Made by a program: the position numbers and the translations under genes. From Fidelibacterota bacterium (GTDB lineage Bacteria > Fidelibacterota > Marinisomatia > Marinisomatales > UBA1611), in NCBI GenBank assembly GCA_018658715.1, contig JABHUQ010000034.1, positions 22,230 to 86,229 on the forward strand: DNA of 64,000 nt. Direction: 5' to 3'. Every line of letters starts with the position of its first letter. Positions within the stretch are counted from its first letter, which is position 1. The notes below the pieces were generated by a model. The model saw only the letters and a program-made list of their open reading frames with translations, did not search any database and was not told the origin of the DNA. Positions 3,456-45,768 of this stretch are shown here, in pieces.

Positions 3456-4714
3456 GTCTTTCCCATTTCCAAGCCGAATTTGAAAAAATGATGAATAGAG
3501 ACTATTTTTCATCAAGCATTCATCCAATGCGAAATGAAGCATTTTCAAAGTTTAATGAGTGTGGATTCCCTACACAAAAATGGGAGGATTGGCAATTCAC
3601 AAACCTTACATCATTACAAAAAGATACTTTCCGTATATCCGAATTGAAGGATGGCCCAACACAAAAAATAGATTTATCTCCCTTTCACATAGATAATGTT
3701 GCCAATATTGTTATTTATAACGGACATTTTCAGAAAGATATATCACATTTTCCTTCTGGCATAAACCTAATGTCTGGTTTAGACTATTTAGAATCGAAAG
3801 AATGGAAATATAATAATACATATGATTCACCCTTCGATTTATTAAATACTGCATTTATGGATAGTGGTATGTCAGTTGTAATTGATGAAAATATGACTAT
3901 TAATACTCCTATTCATATGGTATTTATTTCAAATAGCAATGAACCATTAATGGTAAATCCCAGAGTCCATATAGATGTAGGGGATTCAAGTTCTGCAACA
4001 TTTATTGAGCATCATGTTGGCGTTTCTTCATCCTTTTTTGAAAATGGATCTATTTTTATTAATCTAGAACAAAATGCACAATTAAACCATATTCGCATTC
4101 AATCCAATTCAACAAAAACTATTAGTATGGCTAATATACAGGCGGAACAAAGTTTAGATAGTAAATATACCTTTTTTCAATATGCAGATGGAGGCCAATT
4201 AGGGCGATTAAATATGGTTACTCGTTTGAATGGTGAAGGAGCTGATTGTAACTTAAATGGATTAGCTCTCTCTAAAAACAACCAACATTTAGACCATCAT
4301 ATTATAACAGATCATCGTGTGCCCCATTGCACAAGTTCACAAAATTTTAAATCCATTTTACAAGATAAATCTACTGGTGTCTTTTGTGGAAGAACGATTG
4401 TAAGAGAGCAAGCACAAAAAACAGATTCTAAACAATCCAATAAAAATTTACTCTTATCTAAAAATGCCCTTATGAATTCAAACCCACAGTTGGAAATATA
4501 TGCAGACGATGTAAAATGTTCTCATGGGTCTACAACAGGCGAACTTGACCATGAAGCTCTTTTCTATTTACGTTCTCGTGGCATTGATATGATGGAAGCA
4601 AAAAATTTACTGACCCGTGGTTTTGCAAATGAAATCATGAACGCCATTCGACATAATTGCACTCGTTCATTTATTGATACTAAATTTAAACATTGGTTAG
4701 GGGACGAAGTATGA
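3452..4714 (+). CDS. sufD: Fe-S cluster assembly protein SufD
   Basis: The C-terminal half is SufB/D-like (LEIYADDVKCSHGSTTG, EALFYLRSRGI). I prefer start ATG 3452 because it forms an ATGA overlap with the sufC stop; the ORF opens at 3440. Confidence 0.9.
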   Translation: MSLSHFQAEFEKMMNRDYFSSSIHPMRNEAFSKFNECGFPTQKWEDWQFTNLTSLQKDTFRISELKDGPTQKIDLSPFHIDNVANIVIYNGHFQKDISHFPSGINLMSGLDYLESKEWKYNNTYDSPFDLLNTAFMDSGMSVVIDENMTINTPIHMVFISNSNEPLMVNPRVHIDVGDSSSATFIEHHVGVSSSFFENGSIFINLEQNAQLNHIRIQSNSTKTISMANIQAEQSLDSKYTFFQYADGGQLGRLNMVTRLNGEGADCNLNGLALSKNNQHLDHHIITDHRVPHCTSSQNFKSILQDKSTGVFCGRTIVREQAQKTDSKQSNKNLLLSKNALMNSNPQLEIYADDVKCSHGSTTGELDHEALFYLRSRGIDMMEAKNLLTRGFANEIMNAIRHNCTRSFIDTKFKHWLGDEV

Positions 4715-5130
4715 CAACACTTCCAATTGTTCATCTTCTTCAAGATATTCAAGATTTATTCCAATTTTTTGATGACCCAAAAGATAAGTATGCTCAACTC
4801 ATTGATTTTGGGAAAAAATCTCAAGGGCTTCCAGCTGAAGATTTAATAGAAAAAAATCGCATACATGGTTGTGCTTCAAATGCCTTTGTGAAAATAATTC
4901 AAAACGAAGATCAAACCTTTTTAATTCAAACAGATTCTGATGCACTAATTGTAAAAGGGCTATTAACATTATTAGAAAGAATTTTTCACAACCAACATAA
5001 ATCTGAAATTATGTCTATTAATGGAAGTGATTTATTAAACTCTATTGGTTTGGGGAATTCTATTAGTGGGCAACGTAGTAATGGCTTCACAAATGCAGTA
5101 GAAAAAATTCAAAGAGAAATAGCAAAATGA
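4711..5130 (+). CDS. sufE: Cysteine desulfuration (sulfur acceptor) protein SufE
   Basis: YAQLIDFGKK and the conserved-Cys motif IHGCASNAFV. Start ATG 4711 forms an ATGA overlap with the sufD stop; the ORF opens at 4693. Confidence 0.8.
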   Translation: MTTLPIVHLLQDIQDLFQFFDDPKDKYAQLIDFGKKSQGLPAEDLIEKNRIHGCASNAFVKIIQNEDQTFLIQTDSDALIVKGLLTLLERIFHNQHKSEIMSINGSDLLNSIGLGNSISGQRSNGFTNAVEKIQREIAK

Positions 5131-7218: not shown

Positions 7219-7650
7219 ATGGCAGATAAAAAGAACAGAGCAAGTTGGGAACAATATTTTATGAATATTGCTACCGAAGTGGCCACACGATCCACCTGCG
7301 ATCGTAAACATGTTGGGGCTGTAATTGTTCGGGAAAAAACAATTTTATCCACTGGGTATAATGGAAGTATAAAAGGCCTGCCTCACTGTGATGAAGTTGG
7401 TCACGAAATGGTTGATGATCACTGTGTACGGACCACTCACGCAGAAGCAAATGCTATTGTTCAAGCTGCAAAAAATGGTGTTAGTATTAATGGGTCAGAA
7501 ATATATGTAACAGCATCCCCCTGTTATAATTGTTTTAAACTCATTGCTAATTCTGGTATAAAGACAATTTATTTTGATGAGTTTTATCGAGATGAACGCA
7601 TCATAAACCACGCAAAAGAATCGGGTGTTGAATTAGTCGAGATTGACTAG
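7219..7650 (+). CDS. dCMP (deoxycytidylate) deaminase
   Basis: Zinc motifs HAEANAI and PCYNCFKLI. 143 aa. Confidence 0.85.
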   Translation: MADKKNRASWEQYFMNIATEVATRSTCDRKHVGAVIVREKTILSTGYNGSIKGLPHCDEVGHEMVDDHCVRTTHAEANAIVQAAKNGVSINGSEIYVTASPCYNCFKLIANSGIKTIYFDEFYRDERIINHAKESGVELVEID

Positions 7651-7669: not shown

Positions 7670-9874
7670 ATGATTCCATCTAGCATTCCATTTCTATTCC
7701 GTTTTTTTGTACCAATTTTCCTTTCCATTGCTTCGGCGCAAATTTATGATATATCTATCCCACCCCAAGATGATGATTCTTACGAATATGCAGATTTCAG
7801 GATATACATCAATGATTCGTTAGAAACAATTCGAGGTGTATACTTTTTTATGCACCCTTGGCATGGAGATTCTCGAAATATTGTTAATGACGAAATGTTA
7901 AAAGCGTTATGTGATTCATCTCAATTTGCATTAATGGGTGCTCATTTTGATAATATGCACATGGAAACCGGTGTGGGTGATGCAGTGATTGATGCGATGA
8001 ATGGATTTGTCGAGATGACAGGGAAAACCGAATTAGCCTACACTCCCTTTTTTATAAATGGATATTCTTGGGGTGGTCAATTTGGCTATCATTTTACTGT
8101 TTGGGATCCAGATAGAGTAATTGGTTTTATCACTCAAAAAGGCGGGTACCACGATACAACAGATGCGGGCGATGCCATTTCTGTCCCTGGACTCATGTTT
8201 ATTGGTGAAGATGATTTGGATTATCGTATTACAAATCTCACGGGTGTTTTCTTAAATCACCGACCTATAGGAGCTCAATGGAGTCTTGCAGTAGAACAGG
8301 GGTCAGGGCATTCTCAGGTTCAAGATTGGGATTTATTAAATGCATTTTTCTACCATACAGTTCAACTACGATTACCTGATTCAACAGAATCAAATCATCC
8401 TGTAGAACTATTACCTATCGACAATCAAGATGCTTGGTATGGCGACCAATCAAGTTGGGTGATTGGATCATATGAATGTTATGATGGTGTGGTAGATTCT
8501 TCTTCCTGGTTCCCATCACAAAAAGTGGGCGAACTTTGGCAAAATTTTGCATCAGAAGGAACTGTGGAAGATACGAGTGAATGTGATGGGCCCCAAAATG
8601 TGAGTATACGCATTCCTGCGGAATGGGAGAGCCAGAAAGCAATATGGCTCCAGTGGCCACTTCAATTTGAACATTGGATGCGCCCTGAAATGGCTAACGT
8701 AATTGCCACGGTTCAAACTTTTGAAGATGTACATTTAATAGTACAAAATGAGAGTCATTTAGCCGATGCACAATCACAAGTTCAAGAGCAAGGTGGGAAT
8801 CCATTTAATTTAAATTATCATATATGGGAGCATAACAACGCTTGGCTCCGAGATAATGGCCCACTGTATGTTAAACAAGAAAATGAATTAACTATTCATA
8901 ATATGCAATTTGATTCTTGGGGTGGTTTAGTCCCCAATTATCAAGAAGATAATGCCATACCCTGCACTATTGCTTACGAGCTAGGATTAGATTGTAATAC
9001 ATTGGATTTTATTATGGAAAGAGGAAACCTCGAATTTAATGGCTCCGGAGCTCTTATCACCAATTGGGATTGTTGGGCAGATAGAAACCCAAATTTAGTT
9101 CAAAATGAATTAGATCTTTATTTAAAACAGATATGGGGATTAGATCAAATCGTGTGGACCTATGGACATTCTGAATGGGATGTAACTACTGGCCATATTG
9201 ACGGTGTGGCGCGATTTGTGAATGATTCTACGGTTCTTGTTGGGAATGTTATCAATGCAAATGATCCCGATGCTTGGATATGTGATTCAGCAGCCGTTGT
9301 TATTGAAAATGCAGGATTTAATGTAGTCAGAATGGATATGCCCGGATACATTGATTATTATAATTGGACTATTCCTGCACTTTATCTTAATTACATCATA
9401 GTGGATGGTGCCATCATTGGGAATGCTTATAACGTTCCTGAATGGGATAATGAAGCTCAATCTTTATTAGAAGTATTATTCCCTCGCTATGAAGTCATTT
9501 TATTATACACACCAGAAGTAAATCTTTCTGGAGGTGGGATTCATTGTATTACTAATGATCAGCCTGAAATCATTGATATTTTGAGTATGAAAAATAATAA
9601 TTTACTCCCTTCACAATTTCAACTTCATAACCCCTACCCAAATCCCTTTAATCCAACAACCATCATCCCATTTTCGGTAGAAACGCAGAGTATAGCATCT
9701 CTACAGTTGTACGAAATAACTGGTCGGTTGGTGGAAATATTATTTGATGGTATTCTTGATCCTGGAAATCATAAAATAAAATGGGATGCTTCAGCACAAT
9801 CCAGCGGGATCTATTTTGTTGTCCTAAAAACCCCTAATAAAACATTATTGAAAAAACTGGTTTTATTAAAATAA
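7670..9874 (+). CDS. Secreted three-part protein: alpha/beta-hydrolase-like domain, agmatine deiminase/PAD_porph-family domain, and T9SS C-terminal sorting domain
   Basis: Signal peptide IPFLFRFFVPIFLSIASAQ. GYSWGG nucleophile elbow with later GEDD and GSGHS. Deiminase motifs IPAEWESQKAIWLQWP, NNAWLRDNGP, GHIDG and catalytic GGGIHCITNDQP. CTD YPNPFNPTT...SGIYFVVLK...LVLLK (nt ~9614-9871). The ORF opens at TTG 7643; ATG 7670 is preferred. Confidence 0.8.
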   Translation: MIPSSIPFLFRFFVPIFLSIASAQIYDISIPPQDDDSYEYADFRIYINDSLETIRGVYFFMHPWHGDSRNIVNDEMLKALCDSSQFALMGAHFDNMHMETGVGDAVIDAMNGFVEMTGKTELAYTPFFINGYSWGGQFGYHFTVWDPDRVIGFITQKGGYHDTTDAGDAISVPGLMFIGEDDLDYRITNLTGVFLNHRPIGAQWSLAVEQGSGHSQVQDWDLLNAFFYHTVQLRLPDSTESNHPVELLPIDNQDAWYGDQSSWVIGSYECYDGVVDSSSWFPSQKVGELWQNFASEGTVEDTSECDGPQNVSIRIPAEWESQKAIWLQWPLQFEHWMRPEMANVIATVQTFEDVHLIVQNESHLADAQSQVQEQGGNPFNLNYHIWEHNNAWLRDNGPLYVKQENELTIHNMQFDSWGGLVPNYQEDNAIPCTIAYELGLDCNTLDFIMERGNLEFNGSGALITNWDCWADRNPNLVQNELDLYLKQIWGLDQIVWTYGHSEWDVTTGHIDGVARFVNDSTVLVGNVINANDPDAWICDSAAVVIENAGFNVVRMDMPGYIDYYNWTIPALYLNYIIVDGAIIGNAYNVPEWDNEAQSLLEVLFPRYEVILLYTPEVNLSGGGIHCITNDQPEIIDILSMKNNNLLPSQFQLHNPYPNPFNPTTIIPFSVETQSIASLQLYEITGRLVEILFDGILDPGNHKIKWDASAQSSGIYFVVLKTPNKTLLKKLVLLK

Positions 9875-9919: not shown

Positions 9920-11059
9920 ATGAGTTGGGTTATGATAAGATTTATTTTACTTTTATTGCCAATCTATTTGTTGGCACAAAATAATGTTTGTTTTGACATT
10001 GAAGATAATCCTTATCCCAACCATCCAGCGTTTGGGGTTTTTTCAAAATATGTCAATGTTTTGGGCACTATTGATATTTATGCTGAGTCCAGTATTTCTG
10101 ATGAAAAGATACTTCATGTAGCTGCAGTTACGGCAGAATTATTAGATAATGATGAAGATGGAAATATTGATGATCCGCTGATTGAATCTTCACTAATTGA
10201 ATTGAATACTGTTATGCCGGTGTTCCAGTATGAGAATGGAAATGCCATTGAAACATTTTTTGATAATCTAGATGACGATGGGTGTACTGGTGCTGTATTA
10301 TTCAAAAATGAAATTGATCCAAACCAACCTGGTCATTGGGGAGACGATGCTACAGTGGAAGAAGTATTACACACTATAAACGCATGCGGTCATGTGGAAG
10401 TTTATCCCTCGCTCTACGCACTCTTGCCAAATTCATCTGAATTGACAGATGCCATGGATGTTGCTCGAGGTGGACAATTTATGTCCATTCCAAATCCATA
10501 TCCAGATGAGGCTTGGTATCATTACGATGACTGGACATGTGATTATGAATGTATGGCTATGGAATATTTATATTGGTGCGTCGTCACAAATATGGGCATT
10601 TTAGCAGATACGGAAACGTGTAATGGCATTGCAAACGAGTGGGAACCTTGCAGCCTGGAATTGTTTGAATCTACCGATATATTAATGTTTAATTTGGTTA
10701 CTAATTCTGAAAATAAACTGCCACAACTTGCGCCGGACGGGAATTACTGTACCGAACAGGTGGATACTGATTCTGAAATTATTCCCGGTGATTATCCGCT
10801 ATTATCGCTGTATCCTAATCCTTTCAACCCCACATCTACTATCCAGTTTCATATTGGTATAGAGGCACAGTTTATCTTATCTCTCCTTCAAATAATCGAT
10901 ATTAATGGTCATATTGTGGAAACGTTGGTAAATGGGAAATTGCACCCTGGTGATCATGAAATAAATTGGGATGCCTCGGACTTTCCCAGCGGTGTGTATT
11001 TTGTTCAATTAAAAACGGGGAATAAAATCAAAACTGAGAAAATAATTCTTTTAAAATAA
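9920..11059 (+). CDS. Secreted Cys-rich protein of unknown function with a T9SS C-terminal sorting domain
   Basis: Signal peptide MIRFILLLLPIYLLAQ, many Cys residues, an acidic DNDEDGNIDD loop, and CTD LYPNPFNPTSTIQF...SGVYFVQLK...IILLK (nt ~10790-11056). Confidence 0.75.
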   Translation: MSWVMIRFILLLLPIYLLAQNNVCFDIEDNPYPNHPAFGVFSKYVNVLGTIDIYAESSISDEKILHVAAVTAELLDNDEDGNIDDPLIESSLIELNTVMPVFQYENGNAIETFFDNLDDDGCTGAVLFKNEIDPNQPGHWGDDATVEEVLHTINACGHVEVYPSLYALLPNSSELTDAMDVARGGQFMSIPNPYPDEAWYHYDDWTCDYECMAMEYLYWCVVTNMGILADTETCNGIANEWEPCSLELFESTDILMFNLVTNSENKLPQLAPDGNYCTEQVDTDSEIIPGDYPLLSLYPNPFNPTSTIQFHIGIEAQFILSLLQIIDINGHIVETLVNGKLHPGDHEINWDASDFPSGVYFVQLKTGNKIKTEKIILLK

Positions 11060-11080: not shown

Positions 11081-12418
11081 ATGCCAAAACTCACGCTACT
11101 CCCAGATAATAAAGTTATTGAAGTCGAAAGTGGAACACAATTATTGCAGGCTGCGCTTGATGAAGGTATTCATCATGCTCATGCATGCGGTGCTATGGGG
11201 AAATGCACAACTTGCCGTGTCTTAGTATTAGATGGATATAATAATTGTTCTTCACCTACAGATTATGAACTGAAACTTAAGGAAAAAATCCACTCCAACC
11301 AGGAATTCCGTCTTGCATGTCAAACAAAAATTTTAGGTGATATGGTTGTTAGGCGACTTGTTTTAGACTCTGAAGATATAGAAATGACGTCACAAACCAA
11401 TGCTGTACCCATTGGTCGGTTGGGCGAAACTAAAAAATTAGCTATTTTATTTTGTGATATTAGAGGATTTACACCCTTTGCTGAAAAAATCACACCATAT
11501 GACACCGTTTTCATTTTAAATCGTTATTTTAATCGGATGGTAAATGTAATTGAATCTTATGGTGGTCGAGTTGATAATTACATTGGAGACGGATTAATTG
11601 CATTATTCGGAATAAACAATGAACCTGACGCGGCTGTTTCTGCTGTCCAATCCGCTATTGAAATGTGCACAGAAATGGATGAAATGAAACCTTATCTCAA
11701 AACCATGTATGGTGATGCGTTTAATATTGGCATTGGAGTTCATTATGGTGATGCAGTTGTTGGGGATATTGGTTCAGGAAGATCAAAACGATTAACGGCT
11801 ATTGGGGATTCAGTCAATTTTGCCAGTCGCGTAGAAAGCGCCAATAAACAGTTTCATTCTAGGCTACTCATTTCAGAAGATACTCACAACATTGTTAAAG
11901 ATATGGTGAAAATCAAAGATTTTGTTAGAACAAATATTAAGGGGATTGAAGAAAGAGTAACTTTATACGAGGTAGAAGAAGTAACGGCTGACGTTGGTAA
12001 AATTGAAAAGAGTGAATTTATTGAAAATGGACTGATTTGGCGAAAAGTGAATACAGTATCAAGCTTTGATGACGAACCTCATCAGATATTAAAGGTAAAA
12101 AGAGACAAAATTCTCGTTGCAAAATGCAATAATGAAATTGTAGCAATGAATGACCAATGCCCCCACGCCTTTCTCAGTATGAAAGGTAGTGAAATAGATC
12201 TAAGTGAAAATAAAATTAATTGCAGGTGGCATAATAGTAGTTTTTGCTTACAGTCTGGTGAAATTAAGGAATGGATTGATGATGGTATGTTTAAGTTCAT
12301 GGGAAGGTTAGATTCAAGGGCAAAAGAAATAGTAGAATTGGAAAAAAGAAATCTAGATCTATTCACAACTAAGGTCATTGATGACACCGTTTGGGTTGGG
12401 ATGGATCCGGAATACTAA
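11081..12418 (+). CDS. Three-domain signalling protein: [2Fe-2S] ferredoxin domain, class III adenylate/guanylate cyclase domain, and Rieske [2Fe-2S] domain
   Basis: Fer2: CGAMGKCTTC...LAC. Cyclase: LAILFCDIRGFTPFAEK, YIGDGLIALFG, IGIGVHYGDAVVGDIGS, IGDSVNFASRVES. Rieske: CPH-x18-CRWH followed by SSFCLQSGE and VIDDTVWV. Confidence 0.85.
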   Translation: MPKLTLLPDNKVIEVESGTQLLQAALDEGIHHAHACGAMGKCTTCRVLVLDGYNNCSSPTDYELKLKEKIHSNQEFRLACQTKILGDMVVRRLVLDSEDIEMTSQTNAVPIGRLGETKKLAILFCDIRGFTPFAEKITPYDTVFILNRYFNRMVNVIESYGGRVDNYIGDGLIALFGINNEPDAAVSAVQSAIEMCTEMDEMKPYLKTMYGDAFNIGIGVHYGDAVVGDIGSGRSKRLTAIGDSVNFASRVESANKQFHSRLLISEDTHNIVKDMVKIKDFVRTNIKGIEERVTLYEVEEVTADVGKIEKSEFIENGLIWRKVNTVSSFDDEPHQILKVKRDKILVAKCNNEIVAMNDQCPHAFLSMKGSEIDLSENKINCRWHNSSFCLQSGEIKEWIDDGMFKFMGRLDSRAKEIVELEKRNLDLFTTKVIDDTVWVGMDPEY

Positions 12419-20920: not shown

Positions 20921-21065
20921 TTACGCTCTTTTTTTCGTATTGATTTGTCTTGGTTTTCATGCCAATATATTGATAGTTTTAACTATTCAATCTATAAAAG
21001 TACGTGGATTGAATCCTTCAAAGAGAGGTATTTCTTTATTTAACAAACTAAACAGGAGTATATAT

Positions 21066-22847
21066 ATGAAATCATTTGTTAACATTCTATTAGCATCTGT
21101 GATGTTTATCGGTGTTGCTTTTTCTCAATCTATTCAAGGGAACTATCAGTTGAATTATGTGACAGTTCATTATACCTATGAAGTGAGAGAATTTGACAGT
21201 GCTCAAGATAGCGCAGAAGCTTCATATGACATAACGGCATCTTGGCCCAGTTCTGAATATGCTGCCGCAGGTATGGGTGTCACATGGGATTTATTGGGAT
21301 TTGAACCGGGCGATACGCTCGGGACAACGTTAATTCCTCTTATTTCACCAGAATACCTCGCAGGTTTTGGATATATGCTTACGGGCGATCCTACTGCACC
21401 AGGCGTAGCCATCAATATTGATCTTTATGATGATGGAAACTTTACAATCAATGATGGAAGTACTTACCCAACGACAGAAACCATTGATTGCTCTACCACA
21501 GCTGTAATACCTGCTGTCGCAGAAAATGGTACTTGGCAAGGAACGGCTCTTCTTCCGGTCGATGAAGATACATATACACTTGGTTGGGGGATCACACAAT
21601 CTGAAGTATTTGCTCAATTTAATGCTCCTGATTTAGCGACCATGGAATATGGTGTTGATTTTGGATCAGGGACTACTATGGAAAATTGGGGACAAATGAC
21701 TGTGAATTACACAGATAATACATTAGCTCAGACATCTGACGTAGAAATTTATTGGGAAGCTCATGATGGTGTTGGAAGTGCCTTAGGCGTTGATGATAAT
21801 GGATTTCTTAATGGAAGCACTGGTGTCCCAACTTTGGCATCTGATACTGTTACAATTGGTGGGACTGCTGCACTATTAGCATACTATCAGTCTCTTGGTT
21901 ATTATGCAGATGTTGCACCAATTAATGTTGGTACATACCCTATGATTAATGGACCTGGAAGTGAAGAAGTAGATGAAAATGGTGAGACAGTCACTGTGGG
22001 AGTAGTCGATGCAAACTGGGGATATTTATTCGACCCGGTTGGAGGCGATGGAGAACCTTTTACTGGTGACGAATTATTTCAGTTTACTGGTTATTATTTT
22101 ACATACAACTTCTTATCCACTGCTTTGACATTTATGGATACTGCTGAAGCAGTTTTTGATGCAACATCTGGTGATGTGACTGCTGCATATACAGCTGGTT
22201 TTGTTGCTGTTGCAACCATGTGGGGTGTTGATAGTGAAACTGCAGCTGCATATGGAGCTCAAGTAGGGGCTGATTTATATGCCGAATTCCTCAGTTGTTT
22301 TACAACAACAGGAGACTTAGACGGATGTGCGGAAGAAGTAGCATACGCAGGTATTGTTATGTCACTAGGTGCATTAGCACAAATGGGCATTGATGTAGAT
22401 GATTCTGATCATGACTCGCAAGTTGATCCAAGTACTGGAGGTTTCTCTACAGGTCGTCTTATTTGGGAAATAGATAATGTCTGTATCCCTGATAATACTA
22501 CACAGCGTGTGAATCCAAAATTCTATAATACTGCTGTTGTATCTGTTGATAATAATGCTCCCCTTGCTGCTAAATTTGAATTGTTTGGGAACTATCCAAA
22601 CCCGTTCAATCCAACAACTAGTATCAAATTTGCTACTGAAAAATTCACTAATGTGAATTTAACCATCTACTCTATACTTGGTGAAGAAGTAGCTACGGTT
22701 CACAATGGCAAATTAGCGGCAGGTACATATTCCATGTCTTGGAATGGAAAAAATAACTTTGGGAATAATGTTCCAAGTGGAATGTATTTCTACAAAGTGA
22801 AATCTGATAACCGTACTTTAACAGGAAAAATGCTCCTGTTGAAATAA
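21066..22847 (+). CDS. Secreted protein of unknown function with a T9SS C-terminal sorting domain
   Basis: AGGAG lies upstream of ATG 21066. Signal peptide MKSFVNILLASVMFIGVAFSQ. The body is rich in G, T, A and D with no domain I recognise. CTD YPNPFNPTTSIKF...SGMYFYKVK...MLLLK (nt ~22572-22844). The ORF opens at 20940 but that extension looks non-coding. Confidence 0.78.
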   Translation: MKSFVNILLASVMFIGVAFSQSIQGNYQLNYVTVHYTYEVREFDSAQDSAEASYDITASWPSSEYAAAGMGVTWDLLGFEPGDTLGTTLIPLISPEYLAGFGYMLTGDPTAPGVAINIDLYDDGNFTINDGSTYPTTETIDCSTTAVIPAVAENGTWQGTALLPVDEDTYTLGWGITQSEVFAQFNAPDLATMEYGVDFGSGTTMENWGQMTVNYTDNTLAQTSDVEIYWEAHDGVGSALGVDDNGFLNGSTGVPTLASDTVTIGGTAALLAYYQSLGYYADVAPINVGTYPMINGPGSEEVDENGETVTVGVVDANWGYLFDPVGGDGEPFTGDELFQFTGYYFTYNFLSTALTFMDTAEAVFDATSGDVTAAYTAGFVAVATMWGVDSETAAAYGAQVGADLYAEFLSCFTTTGDLDGCAEEVAYAGIVMSLGALAQMGIDVDDSDHDSQVDPSTGGFSTGRLIWEIDNVCIPDNTTQRVNPKFYNTAVVSVDNNAPLAAKFELFGNYPNPFNPTTSIKFATEKFTNVNLTIYSILGEEVATVHNGKLAAGTYSMSWNGKNNFGNNVPSGMYFYKVKSDNRTLTGKMLLLK

Positions 22848-22888
22848 TTGTGTTTATTTACAACGTTTAATTAACAATAACTAAAAAA

Positions 22889-22922
22889 TGAGCAGTCTGA
22901 ATTCAGACTGCTCATTTTTATT
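22889..22922 (+). terminator. Rho-independent terminator after the T9SS protein gene
   Basis: Perfect palindrome TGAGCAGTCTGAATTCAGACTGCTCA (22889-22914) followed by TTTTTATTAT. Confidence 0.75.
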
Positions 22923-22932
22923 ATGGCACCTT

Positions 22933-25900
22933 ATGAAAAAAATCATTCTATTATTCTTATTATTTAACTTTGTTTTTTCACAAAACAGCTCATTATCTGG
23001 CTATGTGAAAGACGAAACAAATGGAGATCCCTTACTCGGTGCAAATGTTGTCCTTTCCGGAACGACTATGGGTGCAGCAACAGGTATGGATGGAAGTTAT
23101 AATATTACAAATATAAAGGCTGGAGATTATAAAATTTTAGTGACCTATATTGGTTTCGAAACATTGGAGTTTAATTTAACCATACCCTATAACGAATCAA
23201 TCCAACAAGATTTTAATTTATCACCTGAAGCAATTCAGATGGAAACATACGTAGTAACTGCTTCTAGAAGGCGCGAACGTGTTGAAGATGCTCCTGCAGC
23301 TATTTCTGTAATTACAAAAAAAGATATTCGTAGAGAAAGTAATACTAATCTCGGAGACTATTTAAAAGGAACAAAAGGAATTGATTTCACCCAATCTGGC
23401 ATTGATAGTTACAATATGACAGCACGAGGATTTAATTCATCCTTTAGCTCACGATTATTAACATTGACCGATGGACGTATGGCAAATGTGCCATCCTTAC
23501 GATTAACGGCCTATAATGTAATTCCAGTATCTTTTGAAGATGTTGAACAAATAGAAGTCGTACTTGGCCCATCATCTGCTTTGTATGGCCCTAATGCTCA
23601 TAGTGGCGTATTAAATATTGTAACAAGTTCCCCGCTTCGTACGCAAGGAACATCTATTAATATTCAAGGTGGTTTTTTAAATCAGGCGGATACAGATTTA
23701 CTGCAAAAATTAACATTTAGGACAGCCCACAAATATAAAGATTTTGGTTTTAAAATTTCTGGTGTCGCATTGCGAGGCCAAGATTGGACGCATTATAATG
23801 CTGATGAATTAGAAGGCCACGATCCTGCCTTTATAGGGCGTCCAAATTTAAAACACAATTTTATAGATAATGGCGGGAATCCCGGTGAAGGGAACAGCCC
23901 ACTTTTTACGGAAGATATGTTAGGATATTTCGACGATGCAAATGAAAGTTGGATTGGTAAAACATTTGGAGATAATATAGCATCTTTTTCATCTGAAACA
24001 GGCTCCCCTATTATTACTGAAGATATGGTCGCTGAGGCCCAAAGTGACCCATTTAACCGATACTTTTTAGATAATGGTATTATTCTTTGGTATGTGACTG
24101 AAGATAAAATTGGTTCACAATATGCTGATGGGATAGACAATAATGGAGATGGCGCTATTGATGAAGGAATTGATCTAGGAATTGATGACGATTCTGAAAT
24201 TTGGTATGACAATGTAGACAATGATGGAGATGGCCTCGTAGATGAAGCAGATGAAATTGGAAGTGCGTGGCTAGATCGATTTGGTAGCACATTTGAAGGG
24301 GATTTAAATTACACAGTGGGCGTTGGGGTTGACTCCACCCATAAATTTGGGTTTGGAGATTATGAGTATGATGATGATGGAAATATTATTTTTGACACAA
24401 ATGGAAATGGTGAATTCAACGATTCCTGGGGAAGTGATGGTTTAGATAATGATGGTGATTGGGATCTTTACGTCGATACTGATGGAATGACCTATGGCGT
24501 AGAAGAAGAAACATTTTCTGACTTGAACGAGAATGGGACTTTAGACGGGAAAGAGCTATTTATTGATGGGAATGGAAATGGAACATGGGAAGATGGTGAA
24601 GTTCTCATTGATTGGGGTCTTGATGGGGTTGATGGAACTGGAGATTTTGGTGAAGGAAATGGAACATGGGATGGTGAAACTTTTACTGATTTAAATGGAA
24701 ATGGAACATGGGATCAGTTTGAGAATAACGATTTAGATGGAGATGGAAAACCCAGCATGGGTGAAGTAGGTGTGGATGAATTCGATGAAAAGGATTTTGT
24801 GATGAATTATGGAGATCTTCCTCGGATCTATAAAGATGCGAATGATGATGGTCTTAATGATTACCCAGACTTTAATGTAAGAAATTATAGGTATGACTTA
24901 AGATTCGATTGGGAACCAAACCCTGATTTTACCCTAAGTCTATCCCATGGATATGCTTGGGCACGAAATATTAATATTACTGGAATTGCTCGTTATTTAG
25001 CCGATGGTTGGGTTTATCGTTATTACCAAGGTAAAATTCGTTGGAAAAATTTCTTTTTACAAACATACCTTAATTCTAGCTATTCCGGCGAATCAGATCA
25101 CCCTACTAGAAATTTAGCTACAGGATCTTTGATTTATGATCGATCAAAAAAATTCAGCGCACAATTCCAGCACGCGATGGAATTATTAAAAGGAGATCTT
25201 CGGTTTGTTTGGGGGGTAGACTATTTCCTCACCATGCCCAATACACGCGGGACTATATTATCAGATAAAGAACTCGTAGATCGGAAAGATAATAATGGAA
25301 CGGGTGAAGCGGGTTCCCCCTATACATTTGCAGATAGGAATGATAATACATTTTATGACGATGGAGAATTTTATTCTACATGGGCAACAGATACACCTGG
25401 AGCATTTGGAGGAACACCTTCTGATACATTAAGTGTAAACAATGATGGTTCGGTTACATATTCTGATAATGTATTTCATGCTTTAGCCGATGGTTTTGAT
25501 AATGATGGTGATAGTGATGATTTTGAGGATTTAAATGGAAATGGTCTACCGGACTTTGATGATGCAGATGGTGATGGACTATACTCTTACGGCGAGACGG
25601 TTGAACCTGGAGTAAAGTGGATTGGTGAAAATATCTTTTTTGTTTATTCAGATGGCATTGATAATGATGGCGATGGGAAAATTGATGAAAATATTGATGA
25701 GGGGATTGATGAAGCATCCGAAGATAATAGATATACCGTAAATGAATTAGGTGCTTATTATCAAGTAAATTGGAAACTAAATGATAAGTTAGAAATTATT
25801 CAAGCTACACGCCTTGATATTCATGATAGACTTACAAACTTAATTGAATTTAATAATCAAGGATATGGGATGGGATATAACCCTTTAGATTGGGAATTTG

Positions 25901-27015
25901 ATGCATCGCAAAAAAATGGTCTACAATTTTCACCTAAAATTGGTTTCTCCTATAGACCAAAAGAGAATCAAAATTTTCGATTAACTTGGGCTACTGCTTT
26001 TAATACACCCACAAACCAAGCTTTATTTTTGGACATATTTGTAACGCGTGTATCCATTTTTAAAGTGTATGCGCGGGGTGCAGATGGAGGCTATAATTTC
26101 CCCAGAAATGAATTGGGAAACCCTTATTATTATGATATAGAAGAATTTGAATATATGCCAGTGGACACTTCAGAAAGTATGTTCTTCTATCCATCTGTTG
26201 ATCCTCGAATTGAAGGATTCTATGGACAAACAGTTATTGACCTTCCTGAAATTGAAGCAGAAATTGTTAATTCATGGGAAGTGGGATATAAGGGTCGATT
26301 GAATAACAGACTTTTTGGGACACTAGATTTATATACAAGCCATTATAGCAGTTTTGTTAGCCCTGTAACTTTTATTACTCCTATTGTTCTAGAAAGATCT
26401 ATTCTTGAAACGGATTATAATAATGATGGTGTAATGAATACGATTGAAGATTTCAATAATGATATTATTTTAGATCAAGATGATTATGATAAATCTTTTG
26501 ATCATTGGAGAGATGGCATTCAAGGTGTAACGGCAATGGATACAATTGCCGGATTAGCACCTCCTGTTGTGGTTGGCTATATCAACTATGGGGAAGTCGA
26601 TATGTGGGGAATGGATGCAAGTTTAACTTGGTTTATTAACCGTGAATGGAATTTAGATGTTACATACTCACATCTCAGCATGACTGAATTCTTTAATCCA
26701 ATAACTAAAGCAAAAGATCCCATTAATGCGCCAAAACATAAAGGAAGTTTAAAATTACAATATGCACCTCGTAGATGGCCTGTTTCTACATCTTTAAATG
26801 CACGATATGTGGATGGATATAATTGGTCATCTGGAATCTATTTTGGGAAAATTGATCCATATACCATTTTGGATCTTCACGTTGGATATACATTCAACGA
26901 TAATCTTTCTGGTAATTTGACAGTCAATAATTTATTAGATAATCGTCATACAGAAATTATTGGCGGTCCATCATTAGGGCGTGTAGTTGTATTTAGATTA
27001 TCGACAAAATTATAA
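22933..27015 (+). CDS. Very large TonB-dependent receptor (CarboxypepD_reg-like domain, plug, barrel) with two long acidic Ca-binding-type repeat inserts
   Basis: Signal peptide MKKIILLFLLFNFVFSQ. GYVKDETNGDPLLGANVVLSG. TonB box and plug ETYVVTASRRRERVEDAPAAISVI...LTDGRMANVP...VEVVLGPSSALYGPNAHSGVLNIV. Barrel-like C-terminal part. Inserts are listed as separate features. The track start at 22888 lies inside the upstream terminator hairpin, so ATG 22933 is preferred. Confidence 0.85.
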   Translation: MKKIILLFLLFNFVFSQNSSLSGYVKDETNGDPLLGANVVLSGTTMGAATGMDGSYNITNIKAGDYKILVTYIGFETLEFNLTIPYNESIQQDFNLSPEAIQMETYVVTASRRRERVEDAPAAISVITKKDIRRESNTNLGDYLKGTKGIDFTQSGIDSYNMTARGFNSSFSSRLLTLTDGRMANVPSLRLTAYNVIPVSFEDVEQIEVVLGPSSALYGPNAHSGVLNIVTSSPLRTQGTSINIQGGFLNQADTDLLQKLTFRTAHKYKDFGFKISGVALRGQDWTHYNADELEGHDPAFIGRPNLKHNFIDNGGNPGEGNSPLFTEDMLGYFDDANESWIGKTFGDNIASFSSETGSPIITEDMVAEAQSDPFNRYFLDNGIILWYVTEDKIGSQYADGIDNNGDGAIDEGIDLGIDDDSEIWYDNVDNDGDGLVDEADEIGSAWLDRFGSTFEGDLNYTVGVGVDSTHKFGFGDYEYDDDGNIIFDTNGNGEFNDSWGSDGLDNDGDWDLYVDTDGMTYGVEEETFSDLNENGTLDGKELFIDGNGNGTWEDGEVLIDWGLDGVDGTGDFGEGNGTWDGETFTDLNGNGTWDQFENNDLDGDGKPSMGEVGVDEFDEKDFVMNYGDLPRIYKDANDDGLNDYPDFNVRNYRYDLRFDWEPNPDFTLSLSHGYAWARNINITGIARYLADGWVYRYYQGKIRWKNFFLQTYLNSSYSGESDHPTRNLATGSLIYDRSKKFSAQFQHAMELLKGDLRFVWGVDYFLTMPNTRGTILSDKELVDRKDNNGTGEAGSPYTFADRNDNTFYDDGEFYSTWATDTPGAFGGTPSDTLSVNNDGSVTYSDNVFHALADGFDNDGDSDDFEDLNGNGLPDFDDADGDGLYSYGETVEPGVKWIGENIFFVYSDGIDNDGDGKIDENIDEGIDEASEDNRYTVNELGAYYQVNWKLNDKLEIIQATRLDIHDRLTNLIEFNNQGYGMGYNPLDWEFDASQKNGLQFSPKIGFSYRPKENQNFRLTWATAFNTPTNQALFLDIFVTRVSIFKVYARGADGGYNFPRNELGNPYYYDIEEFEYMPVDTSESMFFYPSVDPRIEGFYGQTVIDLPEIEAEIVNSWEVGYKGRLNNRLFGTLDLYTSHYSSFVSPVTFITPIVLERSILETDYNNDGVMNTIEDFNNDIILDQDDYDKSFDHWRDGIQGVTAMDTIAGLAPPVVVGYINYGEVDMWGMDASLTWFINREWNLDVTYSHLSMTEFFNPITKAKDPINAPKHKGSLKLQYAPRRWPVSTSLNARYVDGYNWSSGIYFGKIDPYTILDLHVGYTFNDNLSGNLTVNNLLDNRHTEIIGGPSLGRVVVFRLSTKL
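23790..24880 (+). repeat. Intragenic repeat region 1 of the receptor: reiterated DxDxDG / DxNxNGxxD acidic loops
   Basis: DGIDNNGDGAIDEGID, DNVDNDGDGLVDEADE, DGLDNDGDWD, DLNENGTLDGKE, DGNGNGTWEDGE, EGNGTWDGE, DLNGNGTWDQ, DLDGDGKPS. Near-identical nucleotide units (aatggaaatggaacatggga) recur around 24570-24710. Confidence 0.7.
25264..25725 (+). repeat. Intragenic repeat region 2 of the receptor: acidic Ca-binding-type loops
   Basis: DRKDNNGTGE, DGFDNDGDSDDFEDLNGNGLPDFDDADGDGLY, DGIDNDGDGKIDENIDEGIDE. Confidence 0.65.
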
Positions 27016-44022: not shown

Positions 44023-45768
44023 TCAAATGGACTCCAGTACATCCTTTAAACTATTTGCCAGTTCTTTTTCTACGTATGGTTGAGAGTCAAGAAACTGATT
44101 TATGGTTTGTTCATTGATCGCAATTGCTTCATTTATTTTTTCTTTGGCTAATTTTTTATCACCTTTTTTAGCATAGGTAGCTGCTAAATAAAATATATGC
44201 CAGTTTAACACTTTTATTGTTTTAAAACTTTCAATTGCTTCGTCATAATTCCCTAACCAATAGTGGCAAAAAGCTAATGGACCAAATAACATATCATGAG
44301 AAAATGGGTCAAGCCTTTTAGCTCGTTCTAATTCTGCTAATGATTTTTCAAATTCGCCAAAATAAATCAACATTTGAGCGTACCGAGAAATAATAAAAAC
44401 ATCACTGGGGCATAATTCTACAGATTTTTCAAAATGGTATTTTCCTAACGTATAATCATGCTCCAAATAAAATTTAATGGAACCCATTATTCGATGGATT
44501 TCTGGTTCGGATGGGTCTAACTCTAGCGCTCTATTAGCCGCTTTAAGGCACCTATCTAATAAATCAGAATCATCTTCATCTTCCCAATCCATTAAGTTTG
44601 CTAAACTACAAGCCTGCCAAGCATGAGCCCGTCCATAATTAGGATCAACATTAATAGCTTGTTCAAAAAGTTTTACGGCAGCTTCTGAGTTTTCCTTAAA
44701 TATGTTCCCATTTTTAGCATATTCTAACCCCTTTAACACCAGGTCATAAGAATTCATATTTTCTGGTCTCTTTGACTTAATTGATTTAAGCAAATCATCT
44801 TCCACTCTACCAACAATTGTAGATACAATTTCTTCAGCTATTTGGTCTTGTACATCAAAAACTTCTTCCACCGATAAATCAAAAGAATTAGACCAAACAG
44901 AAGTTTCATTTTTGGTAGAAACTAAATTTGCACTGATACGCATTTTTGATCCCAGTTTTCTCACACTACCATGTATAATATATCTAACGCCAAGTTCTTT
45001 CCCTATTTCCTTAAAACTCTTGGATTTTTCTTTATAAGAAAAACTTGCGTGGCTAGACATAACAACCAATTTATTATAACGAGAAAGCATGGATAATAGA
45101 TCTTCTGAAAATCCCTCACAGAAGTAATCCTGTTCTTCATCTTTACTAAGATTTTTAAAAAACATGACGGCTACAGAACCCGGTTCTGCTGCTTTTACTT
45201 CTGTATAAATTTTTTCGGAATCTTGTGTGAACCTTACTATTCCTTTATTTTCAATAACGTGAAATGCCTTGATAGGAACTTCTATATTTTTCAATTCTAA
45301 TTCACCTGCATCTTCAAAGGAAACCAAAATTTTCCGATTTATCATATCGAATACAGTTTTTGATACGCAAATACCTGAAGGCCGAGCTGACGCTTCTAAT
45401 CGAGCCGCAATATTGACCGTATCTCCAAATAAATTATCATCAGAAATCATTACATCTCCAATATTGATTCCAACCCGAAATGTCATTTGATCTGATTCAT
45501 CTTTATCCACATTCATTGTTTTCATTTTTTGTTGAATTGCAATAGCGGCTTCCGCTGCTTTAATAGGACTTGCAAATTCAGCTATAACGCTATCTCCTGC
45601 GCTCCCAAAAATGACACCATCATGATCATCTATAATTGAATCAATTGCTTCCCGGCGTTCTTTTAAAATGTTCAGCGTTTTGACTTCATTGTCGCCCATC
45701 ATTTTACTGAACCCTACAACATCTGAAGCAAAAATAGTGGTTAGTTTTCTTTCCATACTCTTCCTCAA
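44023..45768 (-). CDS. Class III adenylate/guanylate cyclase domain protein with a TolB-N-like middle region and C-terminal TPR repeats
   Basis: LTTIFASDVVGFSKMM, GSAGDSVIAEF, FRVGINIGDV, FGDTVNIAARLEA. The C-terminal third has TPR-like A/Y/L periodicity. Confidence 0.8.
   Translation of the reverse strand: MRKSMERKLTTIFASDVVGFSKMMGDNEVKTLNILKERREAIDSIIDDHDGVIFGSAGDSVIAEFASPIKAAEAAIAIQQKMKTMNVDKDESDQMTFRVGINIGDVMISDDNLFGDTVNIAARLEASARPSGICVSKTVFDMINRKILVSFEDAGELELKNIEVPIKAFHVIENKGIVRFTQDSEKIYTEVKAAEPGSVAVMFFKNLSKDEEQDYFCEGFSEDLLSMLSRYNKLVVMSSHASFSYKEKSKSFKEIGKELGVRYIIHGSVRKLGSKMRISANLVSTKNETSVWSNSFDLSVEEVFDVQDQIAEEIVSTIVGRVEDDLLKSIKSKRPENMNSYDLVLKGLEYAKNGNIFKENSEAAVKLFEQAINVDPNYGRAHAWQACSLANLMDWEDEDDSDLLDRCLKAANRALELDPSEPEIHRIMGSIKFYLEHDYTLGKYHFEKSVELCPSDVFIISRYAQMLIYFGEFEKSLAELERAKRLDPFSHDMLFGPLAFCHYWLGNYDEAIESFKTIKVLNWHIFYLAATYAKKGDKKLAKEKINEAIAINEQTINQFLDSQPYVEKELANSLKDVLESI

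Follow-up and report, generated by a model that had tools for sequence, protein, structure and literature searches.

The gene on the + strand of a 64,000-nucleotide stretch of DNA from a Fidelibacterota bacterium (assembly GCA_018658715.1, contig JABHUQ010000034.1; this whole stretch is hereafter the window) that begins at position 7670 encodes a protein in which an alpha/beta-hydrolase domain is joined to a guanidino-group deiminase domain, between a predicted signal peptide and a C-terminal sorting domain (CTD) of the type IX secretion system (T9SS). The reading we favour, which taken as a whole we consider moderately probable from the sequence evidence, is that the protein is a T9SS cargo with two independent modules, an esterase and a deiminase, the latter belonging to an exported clade with a predicted guanidino substrate other than agmatine.

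The open reading frame (ORF) is uninterrupted to position 9874 from either an ATG at 7670 or an in-frame TTG at 7643. The TTG overlaps the stop of the upstream gene and is not favoured as a start. The ATG lies 20 nt downstream of the stop (7650) of this upstream gene, which encodes a dCMP deaminase, and yields a 734-aa product identical to the database protein P0001. The same architecture was found in at least seven further protein clusters (61-67% identity, 727-755 aa); one of these proteins, P0007 (62% identity), is encoded on a 46-kb contig (L001) with the same gene order as the window, i.e. SUF operon, DUF2480, dCMP deaminase, fusion gene, Na/H exchanger and ACC carboxyltransferase. The named homologues come from Candidatus (Neo)Marinimicrobia, and the remaining genes of the window are housekeeping genes, e.g. 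those for GOGAT, MetH, PGI and methylmalonyl-CoA mutase. The fusion is real, conserved and chromosomal; its conservation and synteny in related Marinimicrobia mean that it is therefore no artefact. A chimeric assembly, a two-gene frameshift fusion or a wrong start creating a false signal peptide would have only the TTG at 7643 in its favour, the sole ambiguity that we found, and is hardly credible: an independent ENA assembly yields the identical protein, the orthologous clusters and the syntenic contig have equal architecture, and the frame is continuous through domains that each fold confidently in AlphaFold2. We thus rejected a frameshift or chimera, and the signal peptide and CTD, which the initial annotation had flagged as possible products of a wrong start or frameshift, are both genuine.

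The four-part architecture put forward in that annotation (signal peptide, N-terminal domain, deiminase domain and T9SS tail) is likewise confirmed by Pfam, NCBIfam, AlphaFold2 and the conserved layout, and each of the motifs quoted there was found: GYSWGG at aa 131-136, IPAEWESQKAIWLQWP at aa 315-330, AWLRDNGP at aa 391-398, GHIDG at aa 508-512 and GGGIHCITNDQP at aa 621-632. The N-terminus, MIPSSIPFLFRFFVPIFLSIASA followed by QIYD, is hydrophobic and has an AxA cleavage site (ASA before Q). Conserved sequence starts right after this site, the alignment of homologues beginning at about aa 21-24, and the predicted local distance difference test score (pLDDT) of the model is <50 over aa 1-13. 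At the other end of the protein, aa 656-731 matched PF18962 (35.4 bits vs. a cut-off of 27) and the T9SS type A sorting domain model TIGR04183 gave 37.7 bits (vs. a cut-off of 23), and the sorting domain was modelled as a confident beta-sandwich. From these signals alone we infer the export route: as a T9SS cargo of Marinimicrobia (SAR406), the protein would be exported by the Sec pathway, make its type IX passage via the CTD and then be either released or tethered on the cell surface.

The deiminase domain matched the Pfam family PF04371 at aa 314-632 over the full length of the profile (positions 1-321/321, E 2e-66, 224.9 bits vs. a cut-off of 25). Its catalytic set is intact (Asp395, His509, Asp511, Asn574 and Cys626) and is at least 90% conserved in both of the clades described below, the roles of these residues being taken from the Medicago enzyme MtAIH (PMC6447857) and the Porphyromonas gingivalis peptidylarginine deiminase PPAD (PMC4893104). 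All eleven sequence relatives in the PDB are of the agmatine-deiminase type (best match 1xkn, E 1e-43), and PPAD was absent from the phmmer matches to the PDB even at E ≤10. A profile of the clade matched agmatine deiminases with E values of 1e-98 to 1e-62, vs. 1e-24 for PPAD. Similarly, the Foldseek comparison of the modelled domain gave a template-modelling score (TM) of 0.79-0.86 with agmatine deiminases (root-mean-square deviation 2.4-3.6 Å, 22-28% identity), vs. 0.64 with PPAD (16-18% identity). The scores were well below the AguA equivalog cut-offs (143.4 vs. 381.8 bits for TIGR03380 and 142.3 vs. 483 bits for NF010070), and no gene for an N-carbamoylputrescine amidase or a putrescine carbamoyltransferase was found nearby in the window or in the syntenic L001. 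By these measures, the domain is of the agmatine-deiminase type and is neither of the PPAD type nor an AguA equivalog; by analogy, it is expected to share the mechanism of the agmatine deiminases. Of the initial description as an agmatine-deiminase/PPAD-family domain, the family membership stands, given the full-length PF04371 match and the catalytic set. The AguA identity does not, the domain lacking the acidic residues with which agmatine's terminal amine is bound (see below), nor does the proposed likeness to PPAD, from which the domain is remote in both sequence and structure; PPAD orthology was rejected on the same grounds.

To place the domain within its family, we drew on an exhaustive search of 1.84 billion cluster representatives, which recovered 4433 PF04371 family members, and compared the 140 near-complete domains among the best 150 of these. 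The 140 domains split cleanly into two groups. The canonical group (n = 91) consists of proteins of about 325-360 aa without a leader, with the motifs N-D-x-W-x-R-D, W-G-G-K, E-G-G, G-D-[DHE]-T-D-G-H-x-D-[NDT] and HC-x-T-Q-Q-Q-P. The window protein falls in the second group, in which position 390 is Asn or otherwise non-acidic, position 420 varies and the motifs read E-[RK]-G-N, D-phi-T-x-G-H-[IV]-D-G and HC-x-T-N-D-Q-P. The clade-specific residues of the window protein, identified by differential conservation, are Asn390, Leu420, Arg451, Asn453, Val505, Thr507, Gly512, Leu571 and Asn629-Asp630. A signal peptide was predicted in 28 of the 32 representatives with Arg or Lys at 451, vs. 7 of the 108 with Gly at this position (Fisher p = 8e-19); the other four of the 32 have RTX repeats or a dockerin, or are truncated. 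Asp was found at 390 in none of the 32 (0/32), vs. 78/91 canonical representatives, 90/91 of which also have Asp, His or Glu at 505. When the group was defined instead by a hydrophobic residue at the position four residues before the catalytic His, 24/32 clade representatives had Arg or Lys at 451.

Among the matches listed, the clade copies from reference genomes are 33-43% identical to the window domain, the next-best canonical copies reaching ≤31%. They come from Rickettsiales, Planctomyces, Haliangium, Puniceispirillales, Thiomargarita, Oleiphilus, Thalassospiraceae, Roseibium, Arenicellales and Bacteroidales, and the clade thereby covers Alpha- and Gammaproteobacteria, Planctomycetes, Myxococcota and Bacteroidales. 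All of these listed copies have signal or lipoprotein peptides together with the clade motifs, whereas the canonical copies at ≤31% have neither. The accessory domains found in the clade (PKD, dockerin, RTX and T9SS CTD) are of extracellular types. Look-ups of cluster names returned no names for the exported-clade deiminases. The clade is coherent and spans several phyla, and export is therefore no one-off: on the signal peptide counts given above, it is no peculiarity of this protein but what members of a multi-phylum clade of PF04371 have as a rule. Export is a property of the entire subfamily, as far as its sequences tell, and goes with a predicted distal pocket that is systematically different.

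In MtAIH, Asp220, four residues before the catalytic His, holds the terminal amine of agmatine directly, while Asp89 holds it through a water molecule (PMC6447857). The equivalent residues in our alignment are Val505 and Asn390, and the same is true of every close homologue. At a third conserved acidic position, the Asp of the canonical group is replaced by Thr507. Compared to the canonical group, the clade has thus lost three acidic positions and Lys420, and has gained Arg451. With these acidic residues lost and Arg451 gained, the substrate may therefore not be agmatine, and we infer that the preferred substrate lacks the cationic distal amine of this compound. Two proteins with canonical motifs, P0172 and P0204, are deiminases fused N-terminally to a CN_hydrolase domain of the N-carbamoylputrescine-amidase type; these fusions provide an internal control, indicating that the canonical motifs track the agmatine pathway.

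The gene neighbourhoods of nine clade members were mostly uninformative as to substrate, the exceptions being fusion or adjacency to Amidohydro_3 and a single case of an amine oxidase. In Candidatus Thiomargarita nelsonii (L010, 2357-5023), an exported-clade deiminase is fused to Amidohydro_3 in an 888-aa protein with a signal peptide, and in a Puniceispirillales metagenome-assembled genome (MAG; L008, 1718-3190 next to 3875-5011) the deiminase gene adjoins a divergent Amidohydro_3 gene and a TRAP DctM gene. The Amidohydro_3 partner may perform a second step, on the ureido product or on a conjugated substrate. In a Thalassospiraceae MAG (L012, 4938-6398), a gene for a flavin-containing amine oxidase lies directly downstream of the deiminase gene, with a slight overlap, and a gene of the dienelactone hydrolase family is found about 2 kb upstream, with two ORFs in between.

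Sequence searches with the N-terminal half of the protein (aa 1-313) gave no Pfam match at E ≤10, no NCBIfam match at E ≤1 and no PDB sequence at E ≤10. A profile made from 38 N-domain sequences found no alpha/beta-hydrolase in the PDB either, its sole matches being FlgD Ig-like domains via the CTD columns. Having no Pfam match at E ≤10, the domain falls outside the described esterase families (Pfam DLH, Esterase, PHB-depolymerase, cutinase and CE1). The AlphaFold2 model obtained from the same 38-sequence alignment was nonetheless confident (pLDDT 91.2, predicted TM-score (pTM) 0.91) and has the beta-alpha-beta pattern of an alpha/beta-hydrolase. Foldseek matched it to >1000 PDB chains at E ≤1e-3, with a probability of 1.0 to esterases, and the 50 top matches listed are all alpha/beta-hydrolases. 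Among these, esterase D/FrmB, CE1 feruloyl esterases and PETase/cutinases rank highest (E about 1e-9, TM about 0.5, 11-14% identity), the domain being placed by fold comparison only.

The predicted catalytic residues of the N-domain are invariant in 115/115 homologous domains. These comprise the nucleophile elbow G131-x-S133-W-G-G-Q (G131-Y-S133 in the window protein), Asp182 and His214, and the three triad residues occupy the canonical places of the nucleophile, acid and histidine in the modelled fold. The corresponding elbow in IsPETase is GWSMGG. The pair Cys270/Cys305 is also invariant in the 115-domain alignment, which fits an extracellular protein. Both the assignment of this domain as an alpha/beta-hydrolase in the initial annotation and the conservation of its Ser/Asp/His triad in homologues, on which that assignment was to be judged, have therefore held up. 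The possibility that the N-domain is an inactive pro-domain was rejected because the triad is invariant. This first module would be a serine alpha/beta-hydrolase with a Ser133-Asp182-His214 triad, and, to judge from the model, most likely cleaves an ester carried by organic matter outside the cell.

The N-domain occurs in varied proteins, among which it is 45-84% identical, and often stands alone. Marinimicrobia have proteins of about 405-420 aa consisting of the N-domain and sorting domain only, as do bins labelled Gemmatimonadetes, Krumholzibacteria, Eisenbacteria and Planctomycetes. Other marinimicrobial proteins carry BP74_N, LRR, BNR/sortilin or PF00756 esterase domains behind the N-domain, or arylsulfotransferase (ASST) domains in front of it. 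In P0008 (1161 aa) and P0033/P0038, for example, an arylsulfotransferase-like beta-propeller (PF05935/PF14269) is placed before the alpha/beta-hydrolase domain, with or without a deiminase behind it; these architectures provide further evidence of modular shuffling. The deiminase domain, for its part, is found without the N-domain in close relatives of the Marinimicrobia type (P0012-P0015), where the signal peptide directly precedes a deiminase domain starting with RIPAEWE. In P0013, P0014 and P0015 (L003, 8001-9461), the T9SS CTD is replaced by an internally repeated C-terminal region of about 150 aa (EGWNLIGLPLE...GxGYWxR) that has no Pfam match. P0015 additionally carries a Kunitz/BPTI domain, and the deiminase gene of L003 is divergent from a gene for a 336-aa glutamine-synthetase-like protein.

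Comparison of the two domains within the fusion proteins showed that they do not share a history. The deiminase domain of the window protein is 76% identical to that of P0002 and 73% to that of P0003 (77% between P0002 and P0003), vs. 61% and 63%, respectively, for the N-domain (83% between P0002 and P0003). The N-domain of the window protein is 78-84% identical to those of the non-deiminase proteins P0009, P0010 and P0011, but only about 60-63% identical to those of the other fusions, with which its deiminase domain shares 67-76% identity. The N-domains of other fusions are in turn 93-97% identical to those of stand-alone proteins or proteins of other architectures (P0003/P0016, P0006/P0024 and P0008/P0033). 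On these identities, the histories of the N-domain and the deiminase domain are incongruent, which suggests that the N-domain, a 5′ module shared among paralogous T9SS cargo genes of Marinimicrobia, has been exchanged between them or has undergone gene conversion. Furthermore, the full-length AlphaFold2 model has a pTM of 0.54 despite a pLDDT of >90 within domains, and its linkers are of low confidence (aa 306-309 and 636-658); it predicts three modules that fold independently, with no fixed inter-domain geometry. The N-domain is promiscuous and has a history unlike that of the deiminase half. The data therefore lend no support to an esterase and a deiminase that are dedicated partners, and the cooperation between the two halves suggested in the initial annotation finds no backing in the many unrelated partners of the N-domain, the deiminases without it, the incongruent histories or the modelled geometry. 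The first module would rather be a widespread stand-alone secreted enzyme in the FCB group (Fibrobacterota-Chlorobiota-Bacteroidota) and related phyla, which in Marinimicrobia would serve as a shared, exchangeable N-terminal module of many cargo proteins; here, the two modules would be co-localised on short flexible linkers without being mechanistically coupled.

The second module would be a cysteine-dependent pentein deiminase, in which Cys626 would attack the guanidinium carbon of a substrate held by Asp395 and Asp511, with His509 as the general acid/base as in the standard mechanism. The guanidino group would be converted to a ureido group, with release of NH3 outside the cell. The substrate is probably a guanidino compound without a cationic distal amine, rather than free agmatine. 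Nitrogen scavenging via this extracellular release of ammonia is plausible.

A simpler proposal would be that the protein is just an exported agmatine deiminase, converting seawater agmatine to N-carbamoylputrescine and NH3 at the cell surface for nitrogen scavenging, with the esterase half as an unrelated passenger; in substance, this is what the initial annotation chiefly proposed. The closest solved or characterised relatives are indeed all agmatine deiminases, the catalytic set is complete, and P0002 has been automatically annotated (JGI) as an agmatine deiminase. However, the TIGR03380 score (143 vs. 382 bits), the replacement of the amine-holding acids of MtAIH by Val505 and Asn390 and of the third Asp by Thr507, the loss of Lys420 and the gain of Arg451 all argue against it, as does the lack of an N-carbamoylputrescine amidase or putrescine carbamoyltransferase gene nearby in the window and in L001, when canonical types do fuse to CN_hydrolase. 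We consider this proposal rather unlikely. Some observations nevertheless weigh against the reading we favour, two of them to the benefit of the agmatine proposal: Asp504, which neighbours the substituted position and lies five residues ahead of the catalytic His, is invariant in both groups and might substitute for the missing Asp, making agmatine a possible substrate, and the amine oxidase gene beside the clade member of L012 would suit an amine-bearing substrate or product. In addition, the signal peptide calls are heuristic, combined with alignment to homologues; no T9SS machinery (PorU/V, SprA, etc.) was identified among the window ORFs scanned; and inter-domain co-evolution could draw on only eight full-length sequences, a low pTM being compatible with a real interface.

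The altered pocket could also be explained by a functional analogue of PPAD, citrullinating, at the cell surface, the C-terminal arginines of peptides, or free arginine, that extracellular proteases release. Like PPAD, which is reportedly secreted by this route, the protein would be a T9SS cargo, and a Kunitz protease-inhibitor domain is present in one clade member. By analogy with Arg152 and Arg154 of PPAD, which suit a carboxylate-bearing substrate, i.e. a C-terminal arginine, the loss of acidic residues from the pocket and the presence of Arg451 would suit a carboxylate substrate, and the loop before the catalytic His, which contacts the substrate in PPAD through Tyr233 and Ile234, is the same loop that is altered here (PMC4893104). 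The distance from PPAD in sequence and structure, the lack of an Ig-like fold domain separating the CTD from the catalytic domain, and the lack of an adjacent protease gene in the window make this improbable. More improbable again is that the two halves are coupled and act sequentially on one molecule, the esterase freeing a guanidino compound from an ester conjugate or the hydrolase processing the ureido product. The short linker (about 6 aa) and the retention of the fusion in at least eight clusters would fit such coupling, as would the independent pairing of the clade with a hydrolase (the Amidohydro_3 fusion of Thiomargarita and the adjacent Amidohydro_3 gene of Puniceispirillales) and the fusion of canonical enzymes to the next enzyme of their pathway, CN_hydrolase. 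It is difficult to reconcile, however, with an N-domain that is fused to many unrelated partners and most often stands alone, with close deiminase relatives that lack it, with its greater identity to non-deiminase paralogues (78-84%) than to other fusions (60-63%, vs. 67-76% for the deiminase domains), and with the absence of a fixed interface in the AlphaFold2 model. The interpretation that best accommodates these data is that of two independent modules, with a deiminase whose substrate is predicted to be other than agmatine.

Features of the fusion gene and its product, in window coordinates.
Feature	Position	Strand	Basis
Whole gene, 734 aa + stop	7670-9874	+	ORF list; identical 734-aa P0001; orthologues of 727-755 aa; syntenic L001 orthologue
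Sec-type signal peptide (predicted), aa 1-23 (MIPSSIPFLFRFFVPIFLSIASA, cleaved before Q)	7670-7738	+	By eye and homologue alignment
Alpha/beta-hydrolase (serine esterase-like) domain, unannotated family, aa 24-306	7739-8587	+	AlphaFold2, Foldseek, invariant triad
Predicted nucleophile Ser133, codon	8066-8068	+	Invariant column; after strand beta5 in model
Asp182, codon	8213-8215	+	Invariant column; after strand beta7 in model
His214, codon	8309-8311	+	Invariant column; after strand beta8 in model
Short inter-domain linker, aa 307-312	8588-8605	+	pLDDT <50 at aa 306-309; unfused relatives begin at RIPAEWE
Pentein guanidino-group deiminase domain (PF04371, exported clade), aa 313-635	8606-9574	+	Pfam, PDB 1xkn, Foldseek, differential conservation
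Asp395 (catalytic set), codon	8852-8854	+	Aligned to solved agmatine deiminases
Catalytic His509, codon	9194-9196	+	Aligned to solved agmatine deiminases
Catalytic Cys626, codon (in GGGIHCITNDQP)	9545-9547	+	Aligned to solved agmatine deiminases; invariant in both clades
Flexible linker, aa 636-655	9575-9634	+	pLDDT <50 at aa 636-650 and 655-658
T9SS type-A C-terminal sorting domain, beta-sandwich, aa 656-734	9635-9871	+	PF18962, TIGR04183, AlphaFold2

Two further CTD-bearing ORFs are present within the window. The gene adjacent to the fusion gene (9920-11059, +) encodes a second T9SS cargo of 379 aa. This cargo and the fusion protein share 55% identity in their CTDs, and its N-terminal region (about 280 aa) drew no match from Pfam or NCBIfam; the gene is absent from the syntenic locus L001. 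The third CTD protein (20940-22847, +; 635 aa) has no recognised catalytic domain; its gene immediately precedes that of a TonB-dependent receptor (22888-27015, +; 1375 aa) whose N-domain is CarboxypepD_reg, and this pair may constitute a surface-capture/uptake unit. The window also contains a gene (11081-12418, +) combining 2Fe-2S ferredoxin, class III adenylate/guanylate cyclase and Rieske domains in a single, unusual polypeptide, possibly a redox-sensing cyclase, and a second cyclase gene, with TPR repeats, at 44023-45768.

The literature that we searched contained no prior description of this pair of catalytic domains or of an exported agmatine-deiminase-like clade, and we know of no other account of the pair. 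The protein nonetheless combines known kinds of components and is not a new kind of system; its value lies in the delimitation of two unannotated families with clear markers. SAR406/Marinimicrobia are abundant uncultured bacteria of the ocean, whose cell-surface activities are largely inferred. We tentatively raise the broader possibility of an unrecognised multi-phylum family of extracellular pentein deiminases, marked by E-[RK]-G-N, D-phi-T-x-G-H-[IV]-D-G and HC-x-T-N-D-Q-P, with a pocket re-tooled to another guanidino substrate (arginine or C-terminal arginine, guanidino acids or a conjugate); it would provide a cell-surface route to ammonia in SAR406 and other marine bacteria, its Marinimicrobia members being mounted on a cassette-swapped novel esterase module. 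If the exported clade does act on extracellular guanidino compounds, this would constitute an unrecognised ammonia-releasing step in the turnover of marine dissolved organic nitrogen, and a new specificity class in a well-studied superfamily, with sequence markers for the annotation of proteins that are at present automatically labelled 'agmatine deiminase' or 'peptidyl-arginine deiminase'. The N-domain represents a highly conserved family of predicted secreted serine hydrolases (45-84% identity across phyla) that has no Pfam model and merits one. Being an exchangeable module at the 5′ end, it also neatly illustrates how the T9SS cargo repertoire diversifies.

Among known systems, the deiminase domain most resembles AguA/AIH (EC 3.5.3.12; PDB 1xkn, 6nib, 6b2w, 2jer and 3hvm), with which it shares the pentein fold, the full-length PF04371 match, the catalytic Cys, His, two Asp and Asn residues and, as we would expect, the covalent thiouronium mechanism. 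It differs from these cytoplasmic enzymes in its predicted export by signal peptide and T9SS CTD, in its low identity (22-28%) and sub-threshold equivalog scores, in the replacement of the amine-binding acidic residues by Asn390, Val505 and Thr507, in the changes of Lys420 to Leu, Gly451 to Arg and QQ629-630 to ND, and in having no linkage to genes for N-carbamoylputrescine amidase or putrescine carbamoyltransferase. PPAD of P. gingivalis (PDB 4yt9, 4ytb and 5ak7) likewise belongs to PF04371 and is a T9SS cargo with a C-terminal sorting domain; it acts extracellularly or on the surface, releasing ammonia from a guanidino group, as predicted for the protein described here. PPAD has, however, an Ig-like fold domain before its CTD, where we find only about 20 low-confidence residues, and it has no alpha/beta-hydrolase domain. 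The N-domain resembles CE1-type feruloyl/acetyl esterases, esterase D/FrmB and cutinase/PETase (PDB 5vol, 7l0a, 7b5v and 6eqe) in its fold, its G-x-S-x-G-G elbow, the order Ser-Asp-His and its predicted secretion, but the likeness is at the level of the fold (TM about 0.5, 11-14% identity), and an extra C-terminal subdomain of about 90 aa with the conserved Cys pair sets it apart. T9SS tails reportedly occur on some PETase-like esterases of Bacteroidota. The overall plan of the protein, in which a signal peptide and catalytic domain(s) precede a type-A CTD of about 75 aa, is that of the multi-domain T9SS type-A cargo of the Bacteroidota/FCB superphylum, as is the presence of several such genes in one genome region; the host in this case is a member of the Marinimicrobia.

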